From assembly GCA_964650645.1 (NCBI GenBank), contig CAZYUH010000001.1, positions 705,202 through 754,089 on the forward strand: 48,888 nt of DNA, read 5' to 3'. The notes beneath the pieces are model-generated. The model had not been told where the DNA came from, made no database searches, and saw only the letters and a list, made by a program, of their open reading frames with translations. Below are positions 19,932 to 33,799 of this stretch, piece by piece. Positions within the stretch are counted from its first letter, which is position 1. Each line of letters starts with the position of its first letter. The stretch is from an uncultured Candidatus Saccharibacteria bacterium. Lineage in GTDB: Bacteria; Patescibacteriota; Minisyncoccia; Phycocordibacterales; SBAW01. The position numbers and the translations under genes were made by a program.

Positions 19932-21080
19932 TTAGTGCGCTTTCTCAAGCTCGATGAGCTTTTCCAGGCCTTCGAACAACCGCTTGGTCACTTCGGCTTC
20001 CGTTACGCCGAATCTTGCCAGTGGCGATATATCAGCCGTGCCCGCAGCGTCCATTTGCGAATGCTCCCCTGACAGGCCGCGAGCCTGGAGGCCGAAGCCT
20101 TTAGCCGCAGCCTTCAATCCGCTCTCGTCAGTTCCCTGCTTTGAGAGGCTCGGAAACTGGAGGAGCACCGATTGCCTCTTGCCAGTGCCCATATTGGTCG
20201 GGCAGGTCGTGATGAACCCATACTTCGGATCCGTGGCGAACTCAACGCCCGCCTCCGCCATTGCGGAAAGGAGCGCTGAAAGCGACCGGTCGACAACGCC
20301 AAGATCGCTTCCATGGACGATGCTGATTATCCTGAGATGGTCTTCTTCCCCCACCCACACCATCATCTTCTTGTCCGAGCTCAGCCATATCCCCCTTCCG
20401 TGCGGCCAATCGGAAGCGATGCCGCTGCTTGTCAGGTGGTTATCGCTTGTCATATCGTTGAAGAGGTAGTGGTCCCGCCTCATCTCATCAGCTTGGGCTG
20501 CCGGAATTTCGCACGGGTGTCCGGGAGTCAGGCTATAGTATTTCCCAGCGAAAGGAAGCTTGTTGAAAACCGATCCGACCATGAACTCCTCGAACTTCAC
20601 CCGCTCCGATTTGTCCATTGAGCTCGGGAGGTTCCAGCCCGAGACGTTCCTCGCAACGCGGGCCCGCATTGAGACATCGGACAGACTCGGATCAACCAGC
20701 CGGAGGTCGTATACGCCTACCGGGATATTCCAGTCGTGGGCCTGTGCAACATCTCCCGCGATGTTGTGGTATTCGCGGATGATCGGCTCCAAATACCTTC
20801 CCAGCTCGGAGTAATCTGAAGGGCGGGTTGCGTAGACGCCGACACTGGCATCTTCATTTGAAAGACCGCCGACCATTACGTCGAGCAGCCGCTGCTGCTG
20901 GTCCGGAGACAGGTTTTCCGCCCATTCCCTTACCCGGGGAGTGAAGTGCTTGTTCCCGAGCGAAACTTTTACGCCCCTGAGAGCGCGGAAGCGGTCGGAG
21001 ACTTTTCCCCAATCAACATTCCCTTCCTTTACATACGGAGCGCGGGCCTCATCCTTGAAGATGACTTGGTTGTTGTGCAT
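19932..21080 (-). CDS. ATP:guanido phosphotransferase (two-domain phosphagen kinase)
   Basis: N-domain GLSNEDASVGVYA...PIIREYH; RARVARN; DHYLF; WPHGRG; WVGEEDHLRIIS; TCPTNMGTG.R; RGLSGEH; DISPLARFGVTEAE. SD-like AAAGGGA upstream. Confidence 0.93.
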   Translation of the reverse strand: MHNNQVIFKDEARAPYVKEGNVDWGKVSDRFRALRGVKVSLGNKHFTPRVREWAENLSPDQQQRLLDVMVGGLSNEDASVGVYATRPSDYSELGRYLEPIIREYHNIAGDVAQAHDWNIPVGVYDLRLVDPSLSDVSMRARVARNVSGWNLPSSMDKSERVKFEEFMVGSVFNKLPFAGKYYSLTPGHPCEIPAAQADEMRRDHYLFNDMTSDNHLTSSGIASDWPHGRGIWLSSDKKMMVWVGEEDHLRIISIVHGSDLGVVDRSLSALLSAMAEAGVEFATDPKYGFITTCPTNMGTGKRQSVLLQFPSLSKQGTDESGLKAAAKGFGLQARGLSGEHSQMDAAGTADISPLARFGVTEAEVTKRLFEGLEKLIELEKAH

Positions 21081-21257
21081 TTTGATCCCTTTATCAATAG
21101 GCTAAGGATCGTTTGTACGGATCCGAAGTAAAAATACTACATTTGCTTGAAAAGTCTATTTCATGCCTTATTGCAGCCCCGCCAGGACGCCGCAGACCGG
21201 TAAAGGCGGCGCACAAGCACGAGCTGCTTGGATGAGTGGGCGACATTGAAACACATC

Positions 21258-21584
21258 TTATTTCTTAGCTTTCTTTTTCTTCGCCGGCAAAGACTTGGCA
21301 ATATCAAGCAAGATGTTTGGCAGGCTCTCCATCCTGGACAGCTGGCCTTCTTCCACCAAGTAATGGGGTTTTGCGCCGGGATACGGCTCGTCTTTTTCGC
21401 ATACGGATTCAAGATCCCGGCTTGCAGGCAAAACTTTTACGTACAACTGGTCGTCGCAAATAAGGGCCACTGCTTTGCCGTCTGCGTACAGCGCATACTC
21501 ACCGAATATTGCGAGAACAGAAAAATTCTTGGGATGCCGGAGCTTTTCCAAGATAAATTCGACTGCTTCTTTCCGGGTAGACAG
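21258..21584 (-). CDS. TfoX/Sxy N-terminal domain protein (start uncertain)
   Basis: FGEYALYADGKAVALICDDQLYVK and PYPGAKPHY. Family-like start (L)STRKE begins at CTG 21584; the track uses TTG 21608. Confidence 0.75.
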   Translation of the reverse strand: MSTRKEAVEFILEKLRHPKNFSVLAIFGEYALYADGKAVALICDDQLYVKVLPASRDLESVCEKDEPYPGAKPHYLVEEGQLSRMESLPNILLDIAKSLPAKKKKAKK

Positions 21585-21626
21585 AGACGATTCAAGAAAT
21601 TTCAGCAAATGACGCTAGGCCGCAAT

Positions 21627-21773
21627 GACGATATTGCAGTCAAGGAAATAGATATACGAAATTACGCTAAGTATTTATTACGAGAAGGAACAGATCTAGA
21701 AAAGCGAGAATTGCTTGGATGTTTGAAAGGTAATATTTTGTTATCTGAAAAAAAGATTCTATTAACAAAATAA
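21627..21773 (+). pseudogene. Probable 3' remnant of a large serine recombinase
   Basis: DDIAVKEIDIRNYAKYLLREGTDLEKRELLGCLKGNILLSEKKILLTK resembles, from recall, C-termini of Patescibacteria recombinase-family proteins. No own start; GC drops here; terminator follows. Confidence 0.5.
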
Positions 21774-21800
21774 AAACCACTCGACTGAGTGGTTTTTATT
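21769..21800. terminator. Bidirectional intrinsic terminator
   Basis: AATAAAAACCACTC-GACT-GAGTGGTTTTTATT, perfect 14-bp stem. Confidence 0.8.
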
Positions 21801-21836
21801 TCATATTCCTATGTTACTTATATCGCGAACTTAATG

Positions 21837-23363
21837 TTAGTAACTCATAAACTCCGTCACTTCACCATCATTACCGATTGCATAGATGATCCATTTCTCT
21901 GTCTTTGGTCCTGGCATTCCTGGAGAACCTGAAGGCATTCCAGGCAAGGCGATACCTTTGATGGCTGGTTTTTCTGCGAGCAACTTTTCTATTACCTCCA
22001 GTGGTATGTGCCCCTCAACTACATAGCCTCCAACTATAGAAGTGTGGCAGCTCTGTAGATTAGTTGGAACGCCGTACTGATCTTTGATAGCAGTAAGGTC
22101 TTCAACGTCTATAGCCTTTACTTTTACATCTTCACGTTCAAGGTACTCCACATAAACGTGACAGCAACCACACGTTTTTGTTTTATATACCGTCATCTCC
22201 TCACCCATAAGGGCAGTCTTCTCTTCGGAAACGCTTTGACCTTTCCAGATGCTTATACCATTCGGCTTACTGCCTACCGATATTTGAGTTATTTCCTTAC
22301 CTGTTTTTGTATCGACTACAGAGACAGTATTTCCTTCGAGGTTTGTGACATATGCCTTGCTATTATCGTCATTAATAACGACTCCGTGAGGGGCTTTCCC
22401 AACAGCAATGCTTTCAGTTATTTCTTTCGTTTTAAGATCCAGTTTGTACAGCTTGTTGTTTGCAGGTCGGTTCTGTAGAACCCCTTGATCTGCAATATAG
22501 ACGTAACGAGAATCTGAAGTCGGATAGAGTTGCACTGGTCCCTCTGAACCCTCTGGCAATGCTACATACGATACTGATTCGAGAGCAGTATCGTACAGAG
22601 CAACGCTGCGAGTCTCATACACAGACGCAGCTACATATTTACCATCAGGAGTAACCGCTGTCTGGACAACCGAACCGTTGAGAATTTTTACTTCTGTCGT
22701 TCCACTTGCGAGATCGACGACACCAAGACCCTTCCCGTCCATAAAGGCAACATAGGCAGTTTTTCCATCAGGAGAGAGTCGCATACCATGGGGACCGCTT
22801 CCTTCGGGTAGACTAATCTCTGTTTGTAGGAAATTGCTCGTATCTACTTTGTAGAGCTTATTTGTCTCCTGCGCCGCGATAAGTGCTATAGATCCGTCTG
22901 GGGTAAACACGACATGCGCCAGATGCTGACCACTTCCAAGCGGTATTCGTTTGACTATGGCGTCCTCTTGAGGGTCAATGACGATAACCTGATCCCCAGT
23001 GTCCATCTTCATTTCCTCATGTCCCTCATCGGCATATGCGGTAGGAATGAAAAGTGAAGTATGTACGTCATGCTCCTCCATTCCAGCATTAGCTGTTACC
23101 CAAACACTTTTTCCGTCGGGGGACGCCTGGACATTGTGCGGAAGATATTTCGTCTCAGTTTCTTGCTCAGTAAGATCAATGACTTTGATTGATTTGTTTG
23201 TGGCAGGGTCAATCACATTCACAGTGCCTTCTTCTTCGACTGCCACATAGATTTTCTCTGTAAGTGCATTTCCTGTTGAGGAAATGGGGTTATTCTTTGC
23301 AAGCAACGTAATGCCTACAAGTGCAAGGATTACAATCCCGCCTAATAGATATGCTTTCTTCAT
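21837..23363 (-). CDS. YVTN/YncE beta-propeller fused to a C-terminal DUF411 (CopG-like) domain
   Basis: Blades PHNVQASPDG, AHVVFTPDG, PHGMRLSPDG, APHGVVIN; C-terminal TCGCC, SCHTSIVGGYVVEGH, GIALPGMPSGSPGM. Confidence 0.85.
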   Translation of the reverse strand: MKKAYLLGGIVILALVGITLLAKNNPISSTGNALTEKIYVAVEEEGTVNVIDPATNKSIKVIDLTEQETETKYLPHNVQASPDGKSVWVTANAGMEEHDVHTSLFIPTAYADEGHEEMKMDTGDQVIVIDPQEDAIVKRIPLGSGQHLAHVVFTPDGSIALIAAQETNKLYKVDTSNFLQTEISLPEGSGPHGMRLSPDGKTAYVAFMDGKGLGVVDLASGTTEVKILNGSVVQTAVTPDGKYVAASVYETRSVALYDTALESVSYVALPEGSEGPVQLYPTSDSRYVYIADQGVLQNRPANNKLYKLDLKTKEITESIAVGKAPHGVVINDDNSKAYVTNLEGNTVSVVDTKTGKEITQISVGSKPNGISIWKGQSVSEEKTALMGEEMTVYKTKTCGCCHVYVEYLEREDVKVKAIDVEDLTAIKDQYGVPTNLQSCHTSIVGGYVVEGHIPLEVIEKLLAEKPAIKGIALPGMPSGSPGMPGPKTEKWIIYAIGNDGEVTEFMSY

Positions 23364-23367
23364 AGGC

Positions 23368-23763
23368 TTAATTGTTGAACCACGTTTGTCGCCATTCTCT
23401 CATCATTTCAATTTCACTTGTCTGTGCGTTAATAATGTCATTTCCAAGTTTTACGAGTTCAGGGCGCTTAGTCTTTTGAAGAAGCATCTCTGCCATATCT
23501 ACAGCTCCTTCGTGGTGAACAATCATCTCGTCAATAAATGCCTTCTCAAATTCTTCTCCTGATTTACCTTCTAAACCTGCTGTCATATTAGTCATTGTGT
23601 TTCCCATTTCGTGTGAGTTACCCATCATATGACTGCTTGTGTCGGTTATACCTGACATCATTGGGTAATCCATTTTTCCTGTTCCTAAGAAATATCCAAG
23701 AACAAGTCCCAGAATGAGGGTAATGATGCCGATAATAAGTAGATGTATATTTTTTGTTTCCAT
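23368..23763 (-). CDS. DUF305 ferritin-like (CopM-like) protein
   Basis: Met/His-rich linker; FIDEMIVHHEGAVDMA...IINAQTSEIEMM. Confidence 0.88.
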   Translation of the reverse strand: METKNIHLLIIGIITLILGLVLGYFLGTGKMDYPMMSGITDTSSHMMGNSHEMGNTMTNMTAGLEGKSGEEFEKAFIDEMIVHHEGAVDMAEMLLQKTKRPELVKLGNDIINAQTSEIEMMREWRQTWFNN

Positions 23764-23803
23764 AATTTTGTTTAATAGTTGCTAATAAAAGAAGTAGGAA
23801 AAA

Positions 23804-24211
23804 TTACGGGGCTTTGGGATGCAAAATACCTTGAGAGAATAGCTCTGTATATAAATCGGGAATATGGAACGTGAACCTGCGAGGTAATTCTTGAGAGTTG
23901 GATATTTTGGGCGGATCCAGTATGTCCTTTTTTATATACGTGTGGAGGGCAAGTCCAAGAGCTATAAGTAAAAGCAAGTAGGAAGCGATGAGTGTTAGAG
24001 GAACACTGAACATGCTTTGCCATACAGAAAGGTACTCAAACGGGTTCATTGCACAAATGACATGCTCTCCAAGCGTTATGGTGCATCCAGCTTGGTGTTC
24101 ACCGTGCGACATTTGAACCGCCGACAAAATGCCAAACCCACCTACCCATACAAATGCCACTAAGAGTATGCCGAGGAGGAGATATTTTGCTTTGTTAGTA
24201 AAAAATGACAT
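23804..24211 (-). CDS. Hypothetical membrane protein in the copper operon
   Basis: Two TM segments, MSHGEHQAGC...HVIC motif, C-terminal ELFSQGILHPK; 2-nt gap to copB. Confidence 0.7.
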   Translation of the reverse strand: MSFFTNKAKYLLLGILLVAFVWVGGFGILSAVQMSHGEHQAGCTITLGEHVICAMNPFEYLSVWQSMFSVPLTLIASYLLLLIALGLALHTYIKKDILDPPKISNSQELPRRFTFHIPDLYTELFSQGILHPKAP

Positions 24212-24213
24212 AC

Positions 24214-26259
24214 TTACATTCTATAATTTTTCAGGAGGGTTGCGTTAATCGCCACGACCACCGTACTTACTGACATCAGTACGGCTCCTACGGCAGGAGA
24301 TAAAACAATTCCGACACCAGCGAGTACTCCCGCTGCCAGTGGCAGGGCAAGAATGTTATAACCGCTTGCCCACCAGAGATTTTGGATCATCTTTCGATAG
24401 GTAGCTTTGGCAAGAGAAAGAATTACAACCACATCTCTTGGGTCGCTTTTTACCAAGACCACATCAGCGCTTTCTATAGCCACATCGGTTCCAGCGCCGA
24501 TAGCGATGCCAACATTGGCCTGTGCAAGAGCTGGTGCGTCATTGACCCCGTCTCCGACCATCGCCACCTTATACCCTTGAGCTTGGATTTCTTTTATTTT
24601 CTCTGTCTTCTCGTGTGGCAATACCTCTGCGTAATAGGTTTTGATACCGAGCTCCTTTGAAACACGTTCTGCAACACGCTTTGCGTCCCCGGTAAGCATA
24701 ATGGGTTCAATTCCCATTGCTTGAAGTTTTTGGACCACCTCCTTTGCTTCATCGCGAACCAAATCATCAAGAGCAATAGCACCTATAGGTAATTCGTTAA
24801 CCAAAACGAACACGACAGTCCGTCCCTCATCAATCAAACGTTCAACATTTTTGTTGTTTACCGTTATGCTCTTTCCATTCAAATACCCTGGACTTACGAC
24901 TTTGATTTGTTTTCCTTCTACAGTGCCCATTGCACCTTTACCTGGTATTGAGGAGAAGTTATTTACAGCAAGCTTTTTGCTTACCCGTTCTGCTATAGCT
25001 TTGGCTATCGGATGTTCGGAGTGTGCCTCTATTGCGGCAGCATAGGCAAGGATTCGATCCTCCTGTTCATTTCCCAAGGGCACAACTTCGGTTATACCGA
25101 ACTTTCCTTTAGTAAGAGTGCCTGTCTTATCAAAGACAACAGCTGTTATATTCCGTGCTTCTTCAAAAGCGGTTCTGTTGCGTATAAGCAAGCCTTTGCG
25201 AGCAGAAAGAGCTGTTGAAACCGAAACCACAAGCGGTATAGCAAGACCGAGTGCGTGAGGACAAGCTATGACAATAACAGCAATGGTTCGCTGAAGGGCA
25301 TACGCGAGATTTTCTGACGTAAAAAATGTCCAACCAAAGAATGTAAGTATCCCTGCGCCTATCGCAACAAACGTTAGCCACATCGCTGCACGATCAGCGA
25401 GTTTCTGGGTCTTTGACTTTTCTGCCTGTGCTGATGACACAAGCTCTATAATTTGCGAAAGATATGTGTCTTTTCCTACTTTCTGTATCTCTACTACGAT
25501 TGAGCCATCACTGTTTACAGAGCCTCCAATAACGGATTGTCCAGCAAACTTTTCTATGAGCTTGGTTTCTCCTGTAAGCATTGCTTCATTTACAGAAGTT
25601 CTTCCTTCAACAACAATGCCGTCAACTGGAATCTTCTCACCAGGCTTTACAAGAACTCTATCTCCGAGGGACAGATCGGCAACCTGAACATCTTCTGTCT
25701 CTCCGTCTTTTCCTAGCCGATGTGCTGTTGAAGGCATTAGCTTTGCTAGCTCTTCCAAAGCCCGAGATGCACCCATGACCGACCGCATTTCGATCCAGTG
25801 CCCAAGAAGCATAATGTCCACGAGCGTTACCAGCTCCCACAAAAGCTCCTCGCCGGGCAGGCCCGCAAACACAGCAATGCTATATCCATAAGCGGCAGAA
25901 ATAGCCAAGGCGACGAGCGTCATCATCCCCGGCTGTCTTGCTTTTACTTCATCATATAAACCTTTGAGAAAAGGATAGCCCCCATAAAAGAAAATGATTG
26001 AGGCGAGAATAAACCGAACATATACATCTCCTGAAAAGCCGATACCCTCTATACCAAAAAACATCTGGACCATCGGCGAGAGAACAAGTACAGGAATGGA
26101 GAGAATTAGAGAAATCCAAAACTTCTTTCTGAAATCCTCAACCATATGGGCGTGATGACCTTGATGGTTGTCGTGTGAATGTTTCTCTTGGTGGCTACTG
26201 TCCGTATCAGAGCAAGAGTGATCAGCAGGAGAATGTTTGTGATGAGAAGTATCGTGCAT
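24214..26259 (-). CDS. copB: Copper-translocating P1B-type ATPase, His-rich N-terminus (CopB-like)
   Basis: His-rich N-tail, CPH, DKTGTLT, TGE-type actuator motif (MLTGE), GDGVNDAPAL, YNILA, MSVSTVVVAINA. Confidence 0.92.
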   Translation of the reverse strand: MHDTSHHKHSPADHSCSDTDSSHQEKHSHDNHQGHHAHMVEDFRKKFWISLILSIPVLVLSPMVQMFFGIEGIGFSGDVYVRFILASIIFFYGGYPFLKGLYDEVKARQPGMMTLVALAISAAYGYSIAVFAGLPGEELLWELVTLVDIMLLGHWIEMRSVMGASRALEELAKLMPSTAHRLGKDGETEDVQVADLSLGDRVLVKPGEKIPVDGIVVEGRTSVNEAMLTGETKLIEKFAGQSVIGGSVNSDGSIVVEIQKVGKDTYLSQIIELVSSAQAEKSKTQKLADRAAMWLTFVAIGAGILTFFGWTFFTSENLAYALQRTIAVIVIACPHALGLAIPLVVSVSTALSARKGLLIRNRTAFEEARNITAVVFDKTGTLTKGKFGITEVVPLGNEQEDRILAYAAAIEAHSEHPIAKAIAERVSKKLAVNNFSSIPGKGAMGTVEGKQIKVVSPGYLNGKSITVNNKNVERLIDEGRTVVFVLVNELPIGAIALDDLVRDEAKEVVQKLQAMGIEPIMLTGDAKRVAERVSKELGIKTYYAEVLPHEKTEKIKEIQAQGYKVAMVGDGVNDAPALAQANVGIAIGAGTDVAIESADVVLVKSDPRDVVVILSLAKATYRKMIQNLWWASGYNILALPLAAGVLAGVGIVLSPAVGAVLMSVSTVVVAINATLLKNYRM

Positions 26260-26263
26260 ATAG

Positions 26264-26533
26264 TTATTTGCTTTGGGCTAACTTATATACCTTAAGAATT
26301 TCATTGATTGCTTTCCCTTCTTCTTTGCCTCGCATTTGATGCACAACATGCGTAGATAAGTGATGTTCCAGCATCACATTTTCTACGCTTCCCAATGCCT
26401 TTTTGATGGCATTGGATTGAGTGATGATATCTACACAATATTTCTCGCTTTCCACCATTTGCTGTAAACCACGCACCTGACCCTCGATGCGGCGCAGACG
26501 ATTTTGCAACTGCTTTTTTATGTCTTGCTTCAT
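26264..26533 (-). CDS. csoR: CsoR/RcnR family metal-sensing repressor
   Basis: RLRRIEGQVRGLQQMV, YCVDIITQ, MLEHHLSTHV; a CsoR-type operator sits directly upstream. Confidence 0.88.
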   Translation of the reverse strand: MKQDIKKQLQNRLRRIEGQVRGLQQMVESEKYCVDIITQSNAIKKALGSVENVMLEHHLSTHVVHQMRGKEEGKAINEILKVYKLAQSK

Positions 26534-26539
26534 ATCTTA

Positions 26540-26567
26540 AGTATACCCCTGTGGGGTATACGGTCAA
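26540..26567 (-). promoter_or_regulatory. Sigma70-type promoter overlapped by a CsoR-type operator
   Basis: Perfect palindrome GTATACCCC-TGT-GGGGTATAC (26541-26561); minus strand TTGACC-N16-TATACT-N6-ATG. Confidence 0.85.
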
Positions 26568-26728
26568 GCTCAGTTTCGTTAGTTGATACTGTACCTTATT
26601 CATTCTCCTCCACAGGAACGTGTAAAAGCAAAAAGCGCCCAAACCAGGCACTTTTTACCTATAAAAACCTTCCTTAGTTAATATAAGGCTATCGACGCGT
26701 CTCGTGCGCGATAACCTATCACGAGTTG

Positions 26729-26743
26729 GCTGGGAGACATGGA
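26729..26743. repeat. att core, distal copy of the tRNA-Gln 3' end
   Basis: Identical to 31418-31432; on the minus strand it continues ...TCTCCCAG-CCA. Confidence 0.85.
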
Positions 26744-26880
26744 ACCTCACTGCTCGCTTCGCTGCGCTTACGAAACCCTCGGTTTCGTAGACTTCCGACA
26801 CGGGGAACTCCCATTCCCCGACCCCCTCCCGGTTCAAATCCATGCCGCGGGCAACCCCGTTGCCCGCTTCTCCCAGCTTC
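26744..26880 (-). other. tRNA-linked palindromic module with a split antisense copy of the tRNA-Gln 3' end
   Basis: GCTGGGAGA-A-[GCGGGCAAC GGG GTTGCCCGC]-GG-CATGGATTTGAACC, followed by further hairpins (GGGGAA/TTCCCC, TACGAAACC/GGTTTCGTA). Confidence 0.7.
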
Positions 26881-26924
26881 AGCGCTTCGTATTCTAGCTG
26901 GGTGTATGGGACGATGTTGGAACC

Positions 26925-27431
26925 TTACTTTGTGCTTAAGCCCATTACCCGAGAGTAGTATGGCAAAATCTCTTGGGCTAGAGGCGCAAGATTTACTTTA
27001 TCAGCAGATTCAGCAAAAAGTTGGAATATAGGCCACAACTCTTGGGTTAGAGTTTTTACATCCCAAACTTTACTTTTTGGAGTACCGCTTTGTCTTGAAG
27101 TGGTAAGATGACCAACTTCCTTATCAGCCCGGGTCTTTGCCTCTGTCAAAACTTCACTTAATTGCGGCCTTACTTTATCCCAGGAGTCTTCCTTGTTAAA
27201 GAAGTCTTTCGCACATACGTCAGTGTCTCTAGAAGAGGCTGGATATAGGAAAGTAATCAGATTCCGCAAGTGTATTGCGTAAGATTCAACAGGCATATGT
27301 TGCAATCCGTTAGGAACTTTAAGCCCACGAATTATTGCATCAGTACCATTGAGTAACATTTGAACCTCATACCGTACATGTTCAGAAAAGTACTCGACAA
27401 GTTGTTTTTCCGTTAGGTCTTTTGTTTTCAT
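26925..27431 (-). CDS. Hypothetical protein, HEPN-like
   Basis: ESYAIHLRNLITFL and RADKEVGH (R-x6-H); all-helical appearance. Confidence 0.6.
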   Translation of the reverse strand: MKTKDLTEKQLVEYFSEHVRYEVQMLLNGTDAIIRGLKVPNGLQHMPVESYAIHLRNLITFLYPASSRDTDVCAKDFFNKEDSWDKVRPQLSEVLTEAKTRADKEVGHLTTSRQSGTPKSKVWDVKTLTQELWPIFQLFAESADKVNLAPLAQEILPYYSRVMGLSTK

Positions 27432-27781
27432 TGCTGAAGCGTAAAATTAAGACATCCGCAACCAGATTTGCATGGTATTTCCTTATTAAAGACAGGGATA
27501 CTTTGTCCTGGTTCAATCTTAGAAAATCCTTCTTTGTGCATAAACTTGGAGTGACCACACTGGCATTGTTGTTTCAAGGACTCTAAGTATTCATCTTGCA
27601 CAGATACATCTATCTCAACTATCTTTTCATTGTTCTCGCACACTTCGTTTACACATTGAAACTTTCTTTTACCGTCAAACTTTTGAGAAGGCTCTCCTTC
27701 AAGTTTTCGCATAGCAAAAGGGCCAATTTCTCTCATTACCTCATGGCAAACTTCGCAGGGCATTTCTTTCATAAATTTCAA
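27428..27781 (-). CDS. Double zinc-finger-like small protein
   Basis: CEVC...CVNEVC and CQCGH...H...CKSGCGC; ATGA-coupled to the next gene. Confidence 0.7.
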   Translation of the reverse strand: MKFMKEMPCEVCHEVMREIGPFAMRKLEGEPSQKFDGKRKFQCVNEVCENNEKIVEIDVSVQDEYLESLKQQCQCGHSKFMHKEGFSKIEPGQSIPVFNKEIPCKSGCGCLNFTLQQ

Positions 27782-27786
27782 TAACT

Positions 27787-29019
27787 TTAGGTTAACTTTT
27801 CGAATTTACTCGAGAGACTCTTTAGGTTATCTAGCAACTCGTCAAATGTAATAAACTCTATATTCTTGAACGACCTACGCAACAATCTAAAGTCTCTCTT
27901 TTTGTTATCGTTACTCTCCCACTCTTGAGTCTTCCCTATTATTAAAAAGGCTTTTGGCTTGAGAACTGAGAATGGAACCTTAGTTTGCTTTTGTAGGTAC
28001 TTTTCGAATCCCTCAACATTTTTTTCAAGAAAGAGAATGTATTTTTCAATCTGAGAAATTGCCTGCGAAGAGCTTCTTGAAAGGAAATAGTTATCATGAC
28101 TGGTGTCTATCCTTCTCGCAAAAATTTCAGTGAATGGTGTCTTTATTTCAAACACATCCAGGAATCCATATAAATCTATCCAGACAAAATCTGGTTTTTT
28201 AGCACCTTCTTCCGTTTTGGCGAAATTAACATCTGCTTCCCTTATCGACTCAATGTAATTTGAGTTAAAGAAGAAGACTTCCTCATGCAGAAACTTTTGC
28301 CACTGTTTTTCCGAGAAGTTTCTGTTTTTGATATGTCTTTCAAACTTCTTTATCACTTGGTCAAGAGTCTTCTTTCTTCCCTCAATGACAAGGTTCTCCT
28401 GCAAATACTCCAGAACTTGGTCATTTTCTGAGTTTATAGAGATGTATCTTTTAATAAAACCAGCGACAGCCTCATGATCGTCTTTATCAAGAGTGTTTAG
28501 GTTAATCTCAGTTAATTTCTTATTTGCACTTTCGTCACTTGATGCACTCTTGAATTCGTTAGGCAAAAAACGAGCAAGACGCTCTTGCACAACAGAATCT
28601 CTTCCTTTTTTTACCTCAGTTCCAAGGTCTTCAAGTAACTCTCTAAAATCTTTAAAAGAGAGACTGAGCGAAACATACTTAGGCTGATTCTTAAAGTAAG
28701 TCGAGCCATGACCACTCATAAATACACTTAGTCTGGTTTCTTTACCAAACTTATTTTTAAGGAAATCCAAAACGTGACTTCCACCAACTTTATTGACCTG
28801 TCTCTGATTAAAACCTCCTCCTGTCTTGTATAAAAATAGTCCTACCGGCTGCTGAGAAAATCCTTTAAAAGTTATTGTCTTTATACTAAACCTTTTAGCT
28901 ACAGACGGTTTGAAGTAGTAAATGAAGTTATCGTCTTGTTTTTTCCAGCCAGCAAGAATCCTCTTAGCCCTCTTTTTGGCTTTCTTTTTTGAGGACTTCT
29001 TTTTCTTCTTGGCTACCAT
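27787..29019 (-). CDS. sduA: Shedu (SduA, DUF4263) anti-phage nuclease
   Basis: EKQWQKFL, KPDFV, VFEIKTP, SQAISQIEKY, KPKAFLIIG, FRLLRRSFKNIEFITFDELL; TATACT 6 nt upstream. Confidence 0.9.
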   Translation of the reverse strand: MVAKKKKKSSKKKAKKRAKRILAGWKKQDDNFIYYFKPSVAKRFSIKTITFKGFSQQPVGLFLYKTGGGFNQRQVNKVGGSHVLDFLKNKFGKETRLSVFMSGHGSTYFKNQPKYVSLSLSFKDFRELLEDLGTEVKKGRDSVVQERLARFLPNEFKSASSDESANKKLTEINLNTLDKDDHEAVAGFIKRYISINSENDQVLEYLQENLVIEGRKKTLDQVIKKFERHIKNRNFSEKQWQKFLHEEVFFFNSNYIESIREADVNFAKTEEGAKKPDFVWIDLYGFLDVFEIKTPFTEIFARRIDTSHDNYFLSRSSSQAISQIEKYILFLEKNVEGFEKYLQKQTKVPFSVLKPKAFLIIGKTQEWESNDNKKRDFRLLRRSFKNIEFITFDELLDNLKSLSSKFEKLT

Positions 29020-29135
29020 GCGGGTAGTATACTCTTGTTCCTGAAAACTTCATCCGCCGGCGCGGGCGGCCATCCGAGGCGCCCTGCGGAGCTTCGTGCC
29101 GCGCCTAGCGGCATGAAGGGGCGGGGCTGCCCGCG

Positions 29136-29357
29136 CTAGCTAAAGGGTCCTTTGCGGATAAGAGTCTCTGCTTCTTTTTCTGCTCCTGGCTTCCGTGTAT
29201 TTTCTTCTATCTTCTCAAGCAAATTTACTATTCGATTTTGTTTCCAGTACCAAGTAAATATCTCTCGAACTAACAAAAAACCAATGAGCCAAAGAAATAG
29301 AATCGGCCAGTTATCAAAGAAGCTAATGATTTGTCGCGGCAATTCTAGGCTGTCCAT
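29136..29357 (-). CDS. Small single-pass membrane protein
   Basis: TM helix then REIFTWYWKQNRIVNLLEKIEEN. Confidence 0.65.
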   Translation of the reverse strand: MDSLELPRQIISFFDNWPILFLWLIGFLLVREIFTWYWKQNRIVNLLEKIEENTRKPGAEKEAETLIRKGPFS

Positions 29358-29389
29358 ATCTTAAAAAGTTACAGATAAAGCCGTGGACG

Positions 29390-29530
29390 CAAAAAGCCCG
29401 CCACGGGTAGAGACCGAAGTCTCTCGTACCAGTTTCCCGATACGGCAGGTAATGCAACCCCATGACGGGTTCTTTATGCATTACCTGACTTGTCGACCTT
29501 ACCTGGGGTTGCCAGGGTTAGGCCCTTTTT
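29390..29530 (-). promoter_or_regulatory. Putative structured RNA leader / attenuator
   Basis: GAAA-loop hairpin (29425-29444), UUCG hairpin (29409-29424), closing stem CCTGCC/GGCGGG plus T-tract, and an 11-bp stem (29446-29456/29477-29487) that overlaps the closing stem. Promoter TTGAAA-N18-TATAGT at 29547-29576. Confidence 0.5.
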
Positions 29531-29719
29531 ATTCAGTTGTGGCCCCACTATACCATCAGTTTTGCCAACATTTCAAAAAGCGTTTCCGAATACAAAAAGT
29601 GCTTGCCGGGGCGGTTTATGAGCGTAAAATTGTTAGTAAGTTCTGGAATAAAAGTCCCGTAAACACGCCTCCTTCGAGGGCAGAGGCAGAACCCACATTA
29701 AAAGCTCGTCTTTTCTTTT

Positions 29720-29932
29720 GTGGTTTATTCTGCCCCTCTAATACAAGAGACTATTTTCGTCTTTCAAGAAGAAAACGGCATACTTCTCACACCCGAGGAG
29801 GCTGTTATTGTTTTGGATGGCCTTTCTGGGTTGTTTTTGGCATATGCAGACCGAGCTGAGGCGACTCCACCCGCTTTAGCGGTGGAGTCGCACTCTATAG
29901 ACTTGATACTCCACACACTTAATGCTACTTAA
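29720..29932 (+). CDS. Small protein directly upstream of the recombinase
   Basis: GTG start; LIQETIFVFQEENGILLTPEEAVIVLDGLSGLFLAY; TTGCCG-N16-TAAAAT promoter at 29603-29630. Confidence 0.55.
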   Translation: MVYSAPLIQETIFVFQEENGILLTPEEAVIVLDGLSGLFLAYADRAEATPPALAVESHSIDLILHTLNAT

Positions 29933-29969
29933 ATTTATTTACTTTTAATTTCAGTGTATTTTAGAGCTT

Positions 29970-31478
29970 ATGAAATACTTCATTTACTGCCGCAAAAGCA
30001 CTGACACGGAGGACCGGCAGGTATTGTCCCTGGACTCGCAGGAAAACGAGCTTAAACGGCTCGCAGAGGCCCAAGGGCTCAAGGTTGCGGGGGTACTTCG
30101 GGAGTCTATGTCGGCTAAGGCTATAGGCCGTCCTGTCTTTACCCAGCTCCTCAAAGCTCTATCCTCTGGTAAAGCCGATGGAATTCTCTGTTGGAAGCTA
30201 GACCGTCTCGCCCGCAACATGGTGGATGGCGGCCAAGTCATGGATTTGCTCCAAAGGGGTGTAATCAAAGAAATTCGCACTTACGAATCAACCCACCTCT
30301 CCTCCGACAATGTCCTCATGCTCGCCGTCCACTTCGGCATGGCAAATCAGTACATCCGCGACCTGAGCATAAATGTTAAGCGTGGACTTAGAGCAAAACT
30401 AGAGCGTGGCGACTGGCCCAACAAACCCCCTCTTGGATATTTCAACGACAAAAACACAAAGCAAATAGTTATAGACCCCATTTCCAGCAGATATGTCGTG
30501 CGCGCATTTGAACTCTACGCAACAGGGAGCTATGGCATAGAAGACTTGGCAGACAAACTGTACGCCGAAGGACTACGGAGCAACCGAGGAGCAAAGATTC
30601 ACAAGTCCACTCTACACAAAGTTCTTCTTCGCTCGTTCTACACAGGGGTCATGGAGCGCGACAATCGCTTTTACAAAGGCAACCATGCTCCCCTCATTTC
30701 AAAGCAACTTTACGATAAGGCCCAAACCGTACTCTCGGGCAATGCACATCCCAAGCCCCAGCGTTTGTTCTTCCCTCTCAGAGGATTCCTGAAATGCGCT
30801 TCCTGTGGCTGTGCGCTTACTGCCTCTCTCAAGAAAGGCCATCAGTATTACTATTGCACCAATGGCAAGGGTAAATGCGACCAGCACAAGAGCTACCTGC
30901 GCGAGAACACCATAAACGCTATGGTGGCTGATTTGTTCGACTCCCTGCACTTCTCTGAGCGCAAGATTGAACTTATGTATAAAGCCGCTAAGGAAAGGTC
31001 AGAGCAGGAGGGCGGCCAAGAAAGACAGAACCTAAACCGCCTCCAGAACCTCTTAAACGCCCTCTCAGAGAAAGAAAGTCGCCTGTTAGATACTTTCGTA
31101 GCCGGTCAGATTCCTAAAGAGCTTTACGACCGCAAGGCGGGCGAAATACAGCATGAACGTCTAGACCTTACCCGCCAGATTCGGGAGGCTGAAAGTAAGG
31201 GAGATGTTTCTACTTTGGAACCGACTAAGCAAGTCTTTTTACAAGCCAGTAAAGCCAAAAAAGAGTTTTTGGATGGCGATGATACTAAAAAGCGCACTAT
31301 CGTAGAAAATCTACTTTGGAACCTTTCTATCGAAAACAAATCCGTGGCTCAAACACAATATAAAAGCCCATTTCACTTACTAGCAAATATCCCTAAAAAC
31401 GCCTCACTTTCAACAATGCTGGGAGACATGGATTCGAACCATGATTCACGCCTCCAAAGGGCGCTGTCCTACCATTAG
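29970..31478 (+). CDS. Large serine recombinase (resolvase + recombinase + Zn-ribbon + coiled coil)
   Basis: YCRKST (catalytic Ser), WKLDRLARN, PPLGY, CASCG...YYYC...C. The last ~20 codons are antisense to tRNA-Gln. Confidence 0.95.
   Translation: MKYFIYCRKSTDTEDRQVLSLDSQENELKRLAEAQGLKVAGVLRESMSAKAIGRPVFTQLLKALSSGKADGILCWKLDRLARNMVDGGQVMDLLQRGVIKEIRTYESTHLSSDNVLMLAVHFGMANQYIRDLSINVKRGLRAKLERGDWPNKPPLGYFNDKNTKQIVIDPISSRYVVRAFELYATGSYGIEDLADKLYAEGLRSNRGAKIHKSTLHKVLLRSFYTGVMERDNRFYKGNHAPLISKQLYDKAQTVLSGNAHPKPQRLFFPLRGFLKCASCGCALTASLKKGHQYYYCTNGKGKCDQHKSYLRENTINAMVADLFDSLHFSERKIELMYKAAKERSEQEGGQERQNLNRLQNLLNALSEKESRLLDTFVAGQIPKELYDRKAGEIQHERLDLTRQIREAESKGDVSTLEPTKQVFLQASKAKKEFLDGDDTKKRTIVENLLWNLSIENKSVAQTQYKSPFHLLANIPKNASLSTMLGDMDSNHDSRLQRALSYH
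31418..31432. repeat. att core, tRNA-proximal copy
   Basis: GCTGGGAGACATGGA inside the tRNA-Gln 3' half and the recombinase 3' end. Confidence 0.85.
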
Positions 31479-31489
31479 ACGATCTCCCA
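31419..31489 (-). tRNA. tRNA-Gln (TTG)
   Basis: TGGGAGA/TCTCCCA acceptor, GCGCC-CT-TTG-GA-GGCGT anticodon arm, GGTTCGAATCC T-arm; CCA not encoded. Confidence 0.95.
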
Positions 31490-32125: not shown

Positions 32126-33181
32126 TTACGCCAGCGCCCGGTACAAGGCAAGCTCCAGCGGGAGCTGCGGCAGGGGCGCCTTGCCCGTTTCCAGAAGCGC
32201 GGTGATGAGCTCCGCGAGGAGCGCGGCGTTTATCGCGGCGCCGTCCTTGCCCGCGAGCTCCCTGAGCAGTTTCACGTCGTCCTCGCCGAACTGCCCCGCA
32301 AGCTCGCCCTCCGTCTTGGGCGCGAATCGCAGAAGAAGGACTGCGCGCGCCTTCGCCAACGCGAGCAAAATGAACGTCTTAGCCTCCGAGCCGCTCTCAA
32401 GCGCGGCATGGAATTTTTCCACGGCCGCGCCGATGTCCTTGGCGGCCACAGCCTTTAAAAACCCGTTGACCGTCTGCGCCGCAGGCGCGCCCACCACGCG
32501 GGCGACCTCCTCTTCGGTCAGCTTCGCGTCTTCGCTTATAGTCAAGACCTTCTGCAGGATGCCCAGCGTGTCGCGGAACGAGCCATCACCCATGAGCGCC
32601 ACCAGTTCGGCCCCCGCCGGCGCCATGCCCGCGCCCTCCTGCTTCGCAACGTCCATGACGAGCGACTTGAGCGTCTCGTGCGAGGGCTTCTTGAAATTGA
32701 ACACCTGGCAGCGCGACACTATCGTCTCGGGCACGCGGTCGAGCTCGGTGGTGGCCAGCACGAACACCGCGTGCGCCGGCGGCTCTTCCAAGGTCTTCAG
32801 GAGCGCGCCCCACGCGTCTTTCGTAAGCGCATGCGCCTCGTCTATTATGTAGAACTTGTACTTTGAAGCGAACGGCAGGGTCGCCACTCCCTCGCGCAAT
32901 TCGCGTATCTCGTCGATGCCGCGGTTGCTCGCGGCGTCCATCTCGTAAATGTCCTGCCCGCTGGTGCCCAGCGCGTTCGCCAATATGCGGGCCATGGAGG
33001 TCTTGCCCGTGCCGCGCCCGCCCGCGAACAGGTAGGCGTGCGCGATTTTCCCGCCCGCCACGGCGGCCTCAAGCACGCGCACCACGTGCTCCTGGCCGCG
33101 CACCTCGCCGAATGCCGCAGGACGGTAAGCGCGGTACAGGGCCGTATGGGCGCGCGCGGGAGCGTCTGACTTGTTCGCCAT
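32126..33181 (-). CDS. dnaX: DNA polymerase III subunit gamma/tau (short form, 351 aa)
   Basis: ALYRAYRP, HAYLFAGGRGTGKTS, EMDAASNRGIDEIR, IIDEAHAL, LLKTLEEPP, SRCQ; TATACT 6 nt upstream of MANK. Confidence 0.93.
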   Translation of the reverse strand: MANKSDAPARAHTALYRAYRPAAFGEVRGQEHVVRVLEAAVAGGKIAHAYLFAGGRGTGKTSMARILANALGTSGQDIYEMDAASNRGIDEIRELREGVATLPFASKYKFYIIDEAHALTKDAWGALLKTLEEPPAHAVFVLATTELDRVPETIVSRCQVFNFKKPSHETLKSLVMDVAKQEGAGMAPAGAELVALMGDGSFRDTLGILQKVLTISEDAKLTEEEVARVVGAPAAQTVNGFLKAVAAKDIGAAVEKFHAALESGSEAKTFILLALAKARAVLLLRFAPKTEGELAGQFGEDDVKLLRELAGKDGAAINAALLAELITALLETGKAPLPQLPLELALYRALA

Positions 33182-33190
33182 ACGGACAGT

Positions 33191-33400
33191 ATACCCGAGG
33201 ATAGTGAGCAAAATAAACTTGTTTATTTTAGCGAACGACGCAGGATATATGAGCTCCTGACTCATATACCCGAGGATAGCGAGTAAAAACACACGCTTGC
33301 GTGTGTTTTTCGCGAGCGACGCAGGATATATGTGCTTTTGGCTCATATACCCGAGGATAGTGAGCAAAGAAAAAGCCGGCAGATTCAAGTATCTGCCGGC
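33191..33400. repeat. Tandem 57-bp repeat (2 full copies + 1 partial) separated by unique perfect hairpins
   Basis: 33231-33287 vs 33312-33368 match at 50/57; 22-bp partial copy at 33191; hairpins at 33210-33229, 33285-33310 and 33375-33400. Confidence 0.9.
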
Positions 33401-33416
33401 CAAAAGACGCTTTTCA

Positions 33417-33689
33417 TTAGAACCCCCGTTCGCGCTCCATCTCCATAAGCAGTTCTGCCGCTTCACGGAGCGGATTGTGCTCGGGGCGCTCCAAGCCCTC
33501 CATCTGCCACATGAGCCGCTTCTTATCGAAAAGCTCGATGTAGCGCTCCAAAGTAACGCCGTCCGAAACATAACGGCCGTTCTCGTGGAAGAAATTGACC
33601 GACACTTCGACGGTGCTGTCCATGCGCCGGCGCGGCTCCCAGCCGAACGCCGCGAAAGCGGCCATCCTCCTATTAGGCATATCGTCCAT
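33417..33689 (-). CDS. Hypothetical protein
   Basis: Start MDDMPNRR with GGAGG SD; 90 aa; no family recognised. Confidence 0.5.
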   Translation of the reverse strand: MDDMPNRRMAAFAAFGWEPRRRMDSTVEVSVNFFHENGRYVSDGVTLERYIELFDKKRLMWQMEGLERPEHNPLREAAELLMEMERERGF

Positions 33690-33799
33690 GGAATCCTCCC
33701 TCCATTGAAGCCCGGGCACATGCCAGGGCGCGCCTCTGCGGGCACTATAGGACAAAACCCCCGGGAAGGAAAGCGGGACCGCAGGGAGGTGCGGCCTTG

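Follow-up and report, generated by a model that had tools for sequence, protein, structure and literature searches.

A Shedu nuclease gene coupled to an orphan Cys-rich gene and to a member of a large HEPN-like family in a Saccharibacteria genome

Shedu is known as a single-gene defence system that is often found inside restriction-modification (R-M) or BREX loci, transposable elements and prophages (PMC10441436). What, then, is the role of two small genes that are coupled to a Shedu gene? Such a locus is present in the window, i.e. the whole stretch of 48,888 nucleotides (nt) that was analysed, positions 705,202 to 754,089 of contig CAZYUH010000001.1 from an uncultured Candidatus Saccharibacteria bacterium. 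An earlier reading of the letters alone, referred to here as the original prediction, described it as sduA followed by a double zinc-finger (ZnF) gene and a HEPN-like gene, and suggested either a multi-component Shedu variant or a separate ZnF + HEPN pair. Two extra coupled genes behind Shedu are not described in Shedu literature such as PMC10441436 and PMC12577705. The three genes lie head-to-tail on one strand, in the 5' to 3' order sduA, ZnF open reading frame (ORF) and 168-amino-acid (168-aa) ORF:

27787-29019, minus strand: sduA, 410 aa.
27428-27781, minus strand: Cys/His-rich ZnF ORF, 117 aa counted from a TTG start.
26925-27431, minus strand: 168-aa ORF, from an all-alpha family that is large and unannotated.

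We give an even chance to the reading that these genes form a mobile cassette, in which a self-sufficient Shedu nuclease is combined with a portable HEPN-like effector of a large undescribed family and with a lineage-specific Cys-rich partner.

The predicted gene layout was verified at base level. The TTG start of the ZnF ORF lies 5 nt past the sduA stop, and the start of the 168-aa ORF overlaps the ZnF stop in an ATGA. Alternative in-frame ATG starts of the ZnF ORF are found at 27772 (114 aa, 14-nt gap) and 27763 (111 aa, 23-nt gap), and gene callers chose one or the other of these on identical metagenome contigs; the predicted coupling is borne out with any of them, as a gap of 5-23 nt followed by the ATGA overlap. 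The cassette contains no terminator-like site between its genes, none of which is preceded by an evident Shine-Dalgarno sequence. Their guanine-cytosine (GC) content is 36-41%, while the flanking spacers have 60-70% GC. Sequence identical to that of the window was found in several bioreactor metagenomes; the contigs of metatranscriptomes do not differ from those of DNA and give neither strand nor boundary information.

The label sduA was confirmed by three comparisons. The C-terminal half of the protein matches the Pfam family SduA_C (PF14082, DUF4263; residues 236-396) with an E-value of 2e-28, 18 PADLOC SduA models match with a best value of 1.4e-32, and the solved Shedu structures 8ps4 and 8ti8 match the same half with 8.9e-16 and 1.2e-9, respectively. 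The catalytic residues of the PD-(D/E)xK motif, D282, D288, E291 and K293, are intact within PDFVWIDLYGFLDVFEIK (residues 276-293), a segment that aligns with the corresponding stretch of 8ps4. No Pfam family covers the first ~200 residues, a Lys-rich tail among them. The window SduA is a complete, canonical and ordinary Shedu nuclease.

To evaluate whether the two small genes belong to Shedu, the neighbourhoods of close SduA relatives were compared. A metagenome scan yielded eight loci (L027-L034) with full-length SduA orthologues, which are 45-69% identical over their whole length and share the N-terminal architecture. With a hidden Markov model of the 168-aa family and the ZnF sequence as queries, neither small gene was detected at any of the eight. 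At four of these loci (L027, L028, L030 and L031) sequence downstream of sduA is available: in L027 the gene is followed by a convergent large serine recombinase gene, and in L030 and L031 by unrelated genes, so that three orthologues lack a conserved partner, which is consistent with single-gene Shedu function. In L028, whose SduA is 67% identical, a helical protein of 189 aa (1699-2268) starts 9 nt past sduA and carries the sequence FRNMTAH, a canonical HEPN-type motif of the form RNxxxH. Neither Pfam nor PADLOC gave a match, and an hhalign comparison with the 168-aa family gave a probability of 6%, which shows no relationship; the L028 protein could be a second, independent pairing of Shedu with a HEPN-like protein. 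Seen from the other side, Shedu is the neighbour at just two of 18 independent loci of the 168-aa family, namely the window and L001. An obligate three-gene Shedu is therefore not supported, because the orthologues with downstream sequence have neither small gene, and the multi-component variant of the original prediction was not borne out.

A true three-component Shedu, in which the ZnF and 168-aa proteins would be required sensor or regulator subunits of SduA, is accordingly quite improbable in our view. The tight coupling of the three genes, the distantly related SduA that also precedes a family member in L001, and the closely spaced RNxxxH protein of L028 speak for it, and a precedent exists in the two-component KELShedu, whose upstream-encoded partner KELA binds double-stranded DNA (PMC12577705). 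Against these stand the partnerless orthologues, a ZnF gene that is unique to this lineage, and the distribution of the 168-aa family, which mostly occurs without Shedu and is also found behind Uzume, a PD-T7-5-like gene and other nucleases; moreover, the KELShedu partner is an upstream, DNA-binding protein. Judged from its orthologues, the window SduA should work alone.

The cassette appears to be part of a larger element in a tRNA gene, with the following components:

31418-31489, minus strand: tRNA-Gln(UUG), found by ARAGORN and by Rfam (tRNA, 61.8 bits); proposed integration target, attachment (att) site attL side.
29970-31478, plus strand: ORF of 502 aa for a large serine recombinase (Pfam Resolvase 1.8e-22, Recombinase 6.8e-12, Zn_ribbon_recom 3.6e-9).
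29409-29524, minus strand: LOOT RNA, Rfam RF03000; full-length model match by cmscan, 73.7 bits against a gathering threshold of 46.4.
29136-29357, minus strand: putative ORF of 73 aa from the ORF list, with one hydrophobic stretch and no Pfam family above threshold.
29020-29135: spacer upstream of sduA, 70% GC; folding not better than that of shuffles (z -0.77), no Rfam match.
26744-26924: spacer past the 168-aa stop, 60% GC; strong hairpins (z -2.76 against shuffles), no Rfam match.
26729-26743, minus strand: proposed attR, TCCATGTCTCCCAGC, which repeats the final 15 nt of tRNA-Gln without a mismatch (blastn-short E 6.5e-4).

The repeat pairs 26729-26743 with 31418-31432, the 3' end of tRNA-Gln. 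It begins 181 nt beyond the 168-aa stop, and its score was reached by none of 200 shuffles of 20001-29900. We propose that it delimits an integrative element of ~4.7 kb, 26729-31489, which would contain the recombinase, the LOOT RNA, the 73-aa ORF, sduA, the ZnF gene and the 168-aa gene. In agreement with an element of the serine-recombinase type, the recombinase lies at the edge, with the last ~60 nt of its ORF running antisense through the tRNA-Gln gene, the 3' end of the tRNA is repeated, and the composition is foreign: the window has 64% GC save for ~21.0-31.5 kb. The LOOT RNA is on the cassette strand, between the recombinase gene and the 73-aa ORF and sduA, and was not found in the 12 related loci scanned. 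A related arrangement is seen in L027, at tRNA-Gln-CUG, where the SduA orthologue is 69% identical and the recombinase 34% identical (E 1e-56) to those of the window; recombinase and Shedu therefore appear to be the recurring core, and the ZnF and 168-aa genes additions to it. Independent assemblies all break or branch at 29087-29247, with a 39-nt stretch of raised depth (29087-29125), a 131-nt bridging unitig and a 304-nt alternative path from 29211-29247, which points to a short repeat, to strain differences or to both immediately 5' of sduA.

In domain and defence databases, the large family to which the 168-aa protein belongs has no name. The protein found nothing usable in Pfam, PADLOC, NCBIfam or PHROGs, and the first three of these hold no model of its family. 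A word-indexed search returned 55 relatives, all of ~165-170 aa and unnamed; an exhaustive profile search retrieved 3,331 family clusters, defined at 50% identity, at E<=1e-3 and 1,639 at E<=1e-10, and in a second profile search none of the 400 listed proteins had a Pfam domain or an informative name. The named genomes with family members are Saccharibacteria, other Patescibacteria and metagenome-assembled genomes of Acidobacteriota. Stand-alone proteins of 150-200 aa account for 238 of 278 members (86%). In the fusions P0058 and P0134 the N-terminus is formed by an additional helical domain, which has an Rx4H motif of its own, and the relative P0154 carries an N-terminal ribbon-helix-helix domain as read by eye, with no Pfam match.

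Both motifs noticed in the 168-aa protein by the original prediction are present, IHLRNL at residues 53-58, which includes H54-x-R56, and R101-x6-H108. Across 278 members H54, R56, F61 and R113 are invariant (278/278), as is E22 (272/272). Near-invariant are H108 (277/278), R101, E49 and T110 (273/278 each), and also W123, K121, H18, Y21 and D71. About 12 fixed polar residues at a mean identity of ~36% thus point to an enzyme. A tyrosine-recombinase-like reading of the HLRN residues was considered and rejected, as the residue order is wrong and no Foldseek match was obtained.

Structure prediction, which had been suggested for both small proteins, succeeded for one of them. The AlphaFold2 (AF2) model of the 168-aa protein has a high mean confidence (predicted local distance difference test, pLDDT, 92.7; predicted TM-score 0.88) and is all-alpha, with helices at 8-35, 46-62, 93-105 and 125-142; residues 63-92 form an insert that is helical in part. 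For the ZnF protein, AF2 from the single sequence gave a pLDDT of 34.5, and this unusable model was discarded. HEPN domains are described as a four-helix up-down bundle with an insert between helices H2 and H3, an Rx4-6H motif where H3 ends and the H3-H4 loop begins, and an acidic residue within H2; the residue after the Arg is typically polar, N, D or H (PMC3710099). Judged from secondary structure alone, the predicted topology of the 168-aa protein agrees with this description. R101 is predicted within helix 93-105 and H108 in the loop after it, so that the spacing and placement of R101-x6-H108, conserved among the 278 members, are those of the HEPN motif. An acidic residue in helix 2 is present as well, E49 at the start of helix 46-62, though not in the usual Ex3[KR] form.

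We then asked where genes of this family are located, using 18 independent loci including the window. Two settings were observed. In the first, found at six loci, the family gene lies immediately 3' of a nuclease-type gene and is co-oriented with it:

Window: behind SduA, with the ZnF ORF between.
L001: behind an SduA that is 28% identical to the window SduA, in the nuclease domain only; 85-nt gap.
L036: behind UzuA of the Uzume system (PADLOC 3e-58), 30 nt; another GIY-YIG gene behind.
L038: behind a PD-T7-5-like gene (PADLOC 2.7e-8), 23-nt overlap.
L019: behind a RiboL-PSP HEPN gene (Pfam 3e-8, above cutoff), 43 nt; this gene is preceded by a methyltransferase and a PD-(D/E)XK/NERD nuclease.
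L009: behind an endonuclease/exonuclease/phosphatase (EEP) gene, 2 nt; a ThsB-type TIR gene is also in the region.

At L036:3402-6113, with a third GIY-YIG-like gene further upstream, nuclease genes are densely clustered, while the region has no other annotation. The upstream partner proteins share no family in an all-against-all BLAST. In the second setting, observed at six of the 18 loci, the gene directly follows a co-oriented tRNA gene at a distance of 0-135 nt:

L014: tRNA-Gln-UUG, 0 nt.
L022 and L023: tRNA-Ile, ~9 nt.
L007: tRNA-Asn, 51 nt.
L012: tRNA-Gln-CUG, 57 nt.
L006: tRNA-Gln-UUG, 135 nt.

At three more loci (L019, L004 and the window) a variable gene cluster separates tRNA-Gln from the family gene, and five loci show neither setting. 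In L022 (1068-1800) and L023 (3379-4110) an intact tRNA-Ile and a solo family gene are followed by a decayed tRNA-Ile copy (positions ~9-60), with alignment scores of 47 and 41, respectively, against a shuffle maximum of 31; on sequence grounds this arrangement is the footprint of an insertion that carried a single family gene. Significant att repeats were not found in L014, L012, L007, L006, L019, L004 or L027. Both settings are expected of mobile defence or conflict cargo, and we regard the enrichment of the family gene in them as strong but provisional.

The tRNA setting raises the question whether adjacency to nucleases has any function, as the gene could be a frequent resident of tRNA-linked hotspots and defence islands with Shedu as an accidental neighbour. 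The nine tRNA-associated loci, the solo insertions at tRNA-Ile and the strong association of Shedu itself with mobile elements (PMC10441436) would fit this explanation. However, L001, L009, L036 and L038 share the immediate 3' position and have no tRNA nearby, and the nuclease-adjacent setting is therefore not a by-product of the tRNA setting. In the window, furthermore, the gene has the low GC of the cassette (0.41, the host having 0.64), is placed between the proposed att sites, overlaps the ZnF stop with its start and has no terminator-like site between it and sduA. An accidental neighbourhood is thus highly improbable.

The middle gene of the cassette encodes 9 Cys and 3 His. Its open frame is more than a product of chance, as shuffling the interval 20,000 times gave a frame of that length in 6 cases. 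The residues are spaced as C9-x2-C12 with C43-x4-C48, which suggests a ribbon-like first zinc site, and as C73-x-C75-x-H77, H82 and C104-x3-C108-x-C110, which may form a second cluster. Of the predicted double zinc finger, the Cys/His-rich ORF itself is real, and by its Cys spacing it is a putative zinc finger. The protein has no family in Pfam, PADLOC, NCBIfam or PHROGs and no homologue but itself among 5.8 billion proteins. Since it is an orphan, a conserved ZnF + HEPN pair, the second option of the original prediction, is not supported; in addition, a Cys-rich extension is found in none of the 278 family members, most of which stand alone. Small Cys4 genes upstream of the family gene in L004 and L006 are not homologous to the window ZnF. 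A recurrent Zn-ribbon partner was hence rejected, as these genes are unrelated to it, a tRNA intervenes in L006, and no fusions exist. Because the ATGA overlap couples the two translationally, the ZnF protein is most likely a partner of the HEPN-like protein and not a Shedu subunit, and this partnership, if real, is specific to the lineage.

Such a pair might also act as a toxin-antitoxin (TA) or addiction module, in which a 168-aa RNase toxin and a ZnF antitoxin stabilise the 4.7-kb element, with no anti-phage function and no relation to Shedu. An ATGA overlap with a small gene upstream is a typical type II TA layout, and the genes are carried by a mobile element; the putative ribbon-helix-helix domain of P0154 and an ArsR-type helix-turn-helix gene in L014, upstream of the tRNA that precedes the family gene, point in the same direction. 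We nevertheless consider this rather unlikely. The proposed antitoxin is an orphan, whereas a type II toxin family would be expected to co-occur with a small partner, and most family genes have none, many directly following a tRNA without a small upstream gene. A constitutive toxin in need of an antitoxin is hard to square with 86% of members standing alone. Nor is there an MNT-type partner: no MNT or other nucleotidyltransferase (NTase) gene is present in the cassette (ORF list and Pfam), and an NTase-like gene near a family gene was seen only at L009, as a weak match.

Taken together, we propose the following scenario for the cassette. The large serine recombinase would have inserted the ~4.7-kb element, with the defence cassette as its cargo, into tRNA-Gln of a host genome of 64% GC that was recovered from bioreactor metagenomes, beside an older low-GC copper-resistance island. 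SduA would act alone as a DNA nuclease. The 168-aa protein may be a metal-independent RNase that uses R101 and H108 together with E49. We infer that it could ride behind the DNA nuclease as an independent or back-up effector of the abortive-infection type, a role modelled on what was proposed in PMC3710099 for HEPN domains joined to R-M systems. The ZnF protein may be its lineage-specific sensor, regulator or antitoxin. A bolder version, tentative and in our estimate unlikely, would extend this to the whole family: a portable HEPN-like "second-strike" module that adds an RNA-level back-up behind unrelated DNA-nuclease defences (Shedu, Uzume, PD-T7-5 and R-M-type clusters) and also moves alone into tRNA genes, with the ZnF protein of the window as the sensor of a split analogue of RAZR, which is compared below.

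Several observations weigh against the proposal of a mobile cassette with a HEPN-like effector. None of the searches linked the 168-aa protein with significance to an established HEPN family, whether by sequence profile or by structure. The Pfam HEPN models do not match the 168-aa protein; 1 of 60 relatives touches HEPN_AbiU2 with an E-value of 0.017, and an isolated relative touches HEPN_DZIP3 with 0.14. Sequence-profile searches of the PDB with close and divergent family alignments gave zero matches even at E 10. Foldseek searches of the AF2 model against PDB and BFVD returned nothing below E 0.3, with CLIC, GST and Dps as top entries that we regard as noise, and the best HEPN entry, 4nqf, at rank 32 (E 3.2, TM-score 0.35). 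In hhalign comparisons the family showed no relationship to the RiboL-PSP HEPN protein of L019 (probability 1%) or to the N-terminal domain of P0058 (0.3%). The residue after R101 is Ala in 240 of 278 members. H18, Y21, E22, H54, R56 and D71 form a second invariant cluster outside the HEPN canon, which could indicate other chemistry, e.g. metal binding. As for mobility, the att repeat is short (15 nt), and junctions of an excised element or of an empty site were not seen in the contig-level data, which cannot show excision. Neither the protein nor the family consensus gave a tblastn match in plasmid and phage collections, and a scan of viral contigs was also empty. The 18 loci are a small sample that was not randomly drawn, and at ~12 of them a recognisable defence neighbour is missing, many of these genes lying among housekeeping genes. 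The name "HEPN-like" is hence justified by the motif and the predicted topology, while homology to known HEPN domains is unproven.

Alternatively, the family may not be a nuclease but a regulator, an inhibitor, an immunity-type nuclease partner, or a metal- or ligand-binding helical protein. This would explain why its members are located behind, or fused to, many different nuclease domains (PD-(D/E)xK, GIY-YIG, EEP and HEPN) and why no HEPN homology is detectable, and H18-x3-E22, E49-x4-H54 and E105-x2-H108 could be the metal ligands of a di-metal four-helix bundle. On the other hand, ~12 near-invariant polar residues among such divergent sequences are typical of enzymes and unlike a fast-evolving immunity protein, the motif position and topology fit HEPN, and many members are solo. 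A non-nuclease function therefore seems improbable.

The single-gene view of Shedu is not overturned by the window locus. Its novelty is rather the family and its recurrent placement: more than 3,000 unnamed clusters with an enzyme-like invariant core, whose genes habitually lie, in a specific orientation, behind various defence nucleases and at tRNA insertion sites. If the family is an RNase back-up effector, it may represent a general accessory layer for DNA-targeting defences, comparable to that proposed for R-M-attached HEPN domains, and a new family for defence-finding tools, especially in Patescibacteria and uncultured lineages with poorly known defence repertoires. The 4.7-kb element with recombinase, LOOT RNA and Shedu would be a compact example of how such cassettes travel.

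Outside the att repeat, copper-handling genes form a second low-GC block on the minus strand (~21800-26540), which is probably an older copper-resistance island at the same tRNA:

21837-23363, minus strand: beta-propeller + DUF411 protein, 508 aa.
23368-23763, minus strand: DUF305 protein.
24214-26259, minus strand: P-type ATPase.
26264-26533, minus strand: CsoR.

On the other side of the tRNA, the order of a dnaX/holB-type gene, tRNA-Gln(UUG) and a variable region is common to the window (32126-33745), L006, L014 and L019, which suggests a conserved integration hotspot in Patescibacteria-like contigs. The dnaX leader of the window (33190-33373) contains ~2.5 copies of a 75-81-nt direct repeat with 82-93% identity; as a result, the dnaX ORF has a false N-terminal extension that includes the repeated peptide ILGYMSQ..IYPAS.AK.

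Comparison with known systems places the parts of the cassette differently. With Shedu (8ps4, 8ti8) the window shares the DUF4263 domain with its D...D-x2-E-x-K residues, the variable N-terminal domain and the location in a mobile element. None of the differences is essential for SduA; they are the N-terminal domain and Lys-rich tail outside any Pfam family, and the two coupled genes added downstream. KELShedu likewise combines a Shedu nuclease with a separately encoded partner, so Shedu is not always single-gene, but KELA is encoded upstream, whereas in the window the extra genes lie behind sduA, one of them is an orphan, and this SduA clade does not conserve either of them. HEPN-MNT (HepT/MntA) resembles the window in the small HEPN-type protein within an overlapping two-gene operon and differs in the partner, which in the window is a Cys-rich orphan and not a nucleotidyltransferase. 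The HEPN superfamily is set apart from the 168-aa family by the lack of a significant profile or fold match, by the Ala after the Arg and by the extra invariant H-x-R/H-x2-Y-E cluster. With the families AbiU2, AbiV and RiboL-PSP (PMC3710099) the 168-aa protein nevertheless appears to share the four-helix bundle, the H2/H3 insert, the Rx6H motif and the acidic H2 residue. Like Abi-type and R-M-linked HEPN proteins (HEPN domains are reported to be closely tied to R-M and further defence systems, PMC3710099), it is small, stand-alone and attached to a DNA-targeting defence system. Functionally, the ZnF and 168-aa proteins may be most comparable to RAZR (PD-T7-4), a polypeptide that joins a sensor, the N-terminal Cys4 zinc ribbon, to a divergent HEPN RNase of the DUF4145 type with essential Arg and His (PMC13017515). 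The window has two genes in place of this one polypeptide, no match to PADLOC PD-T7-4 or Pfam DUF4145, and a family devoid of Cys-rich fusions; what the two would have in common is a Cys-rich module upstream of a HEPN-type RNase with an Arg/His pair, and an abortive-infection logic.

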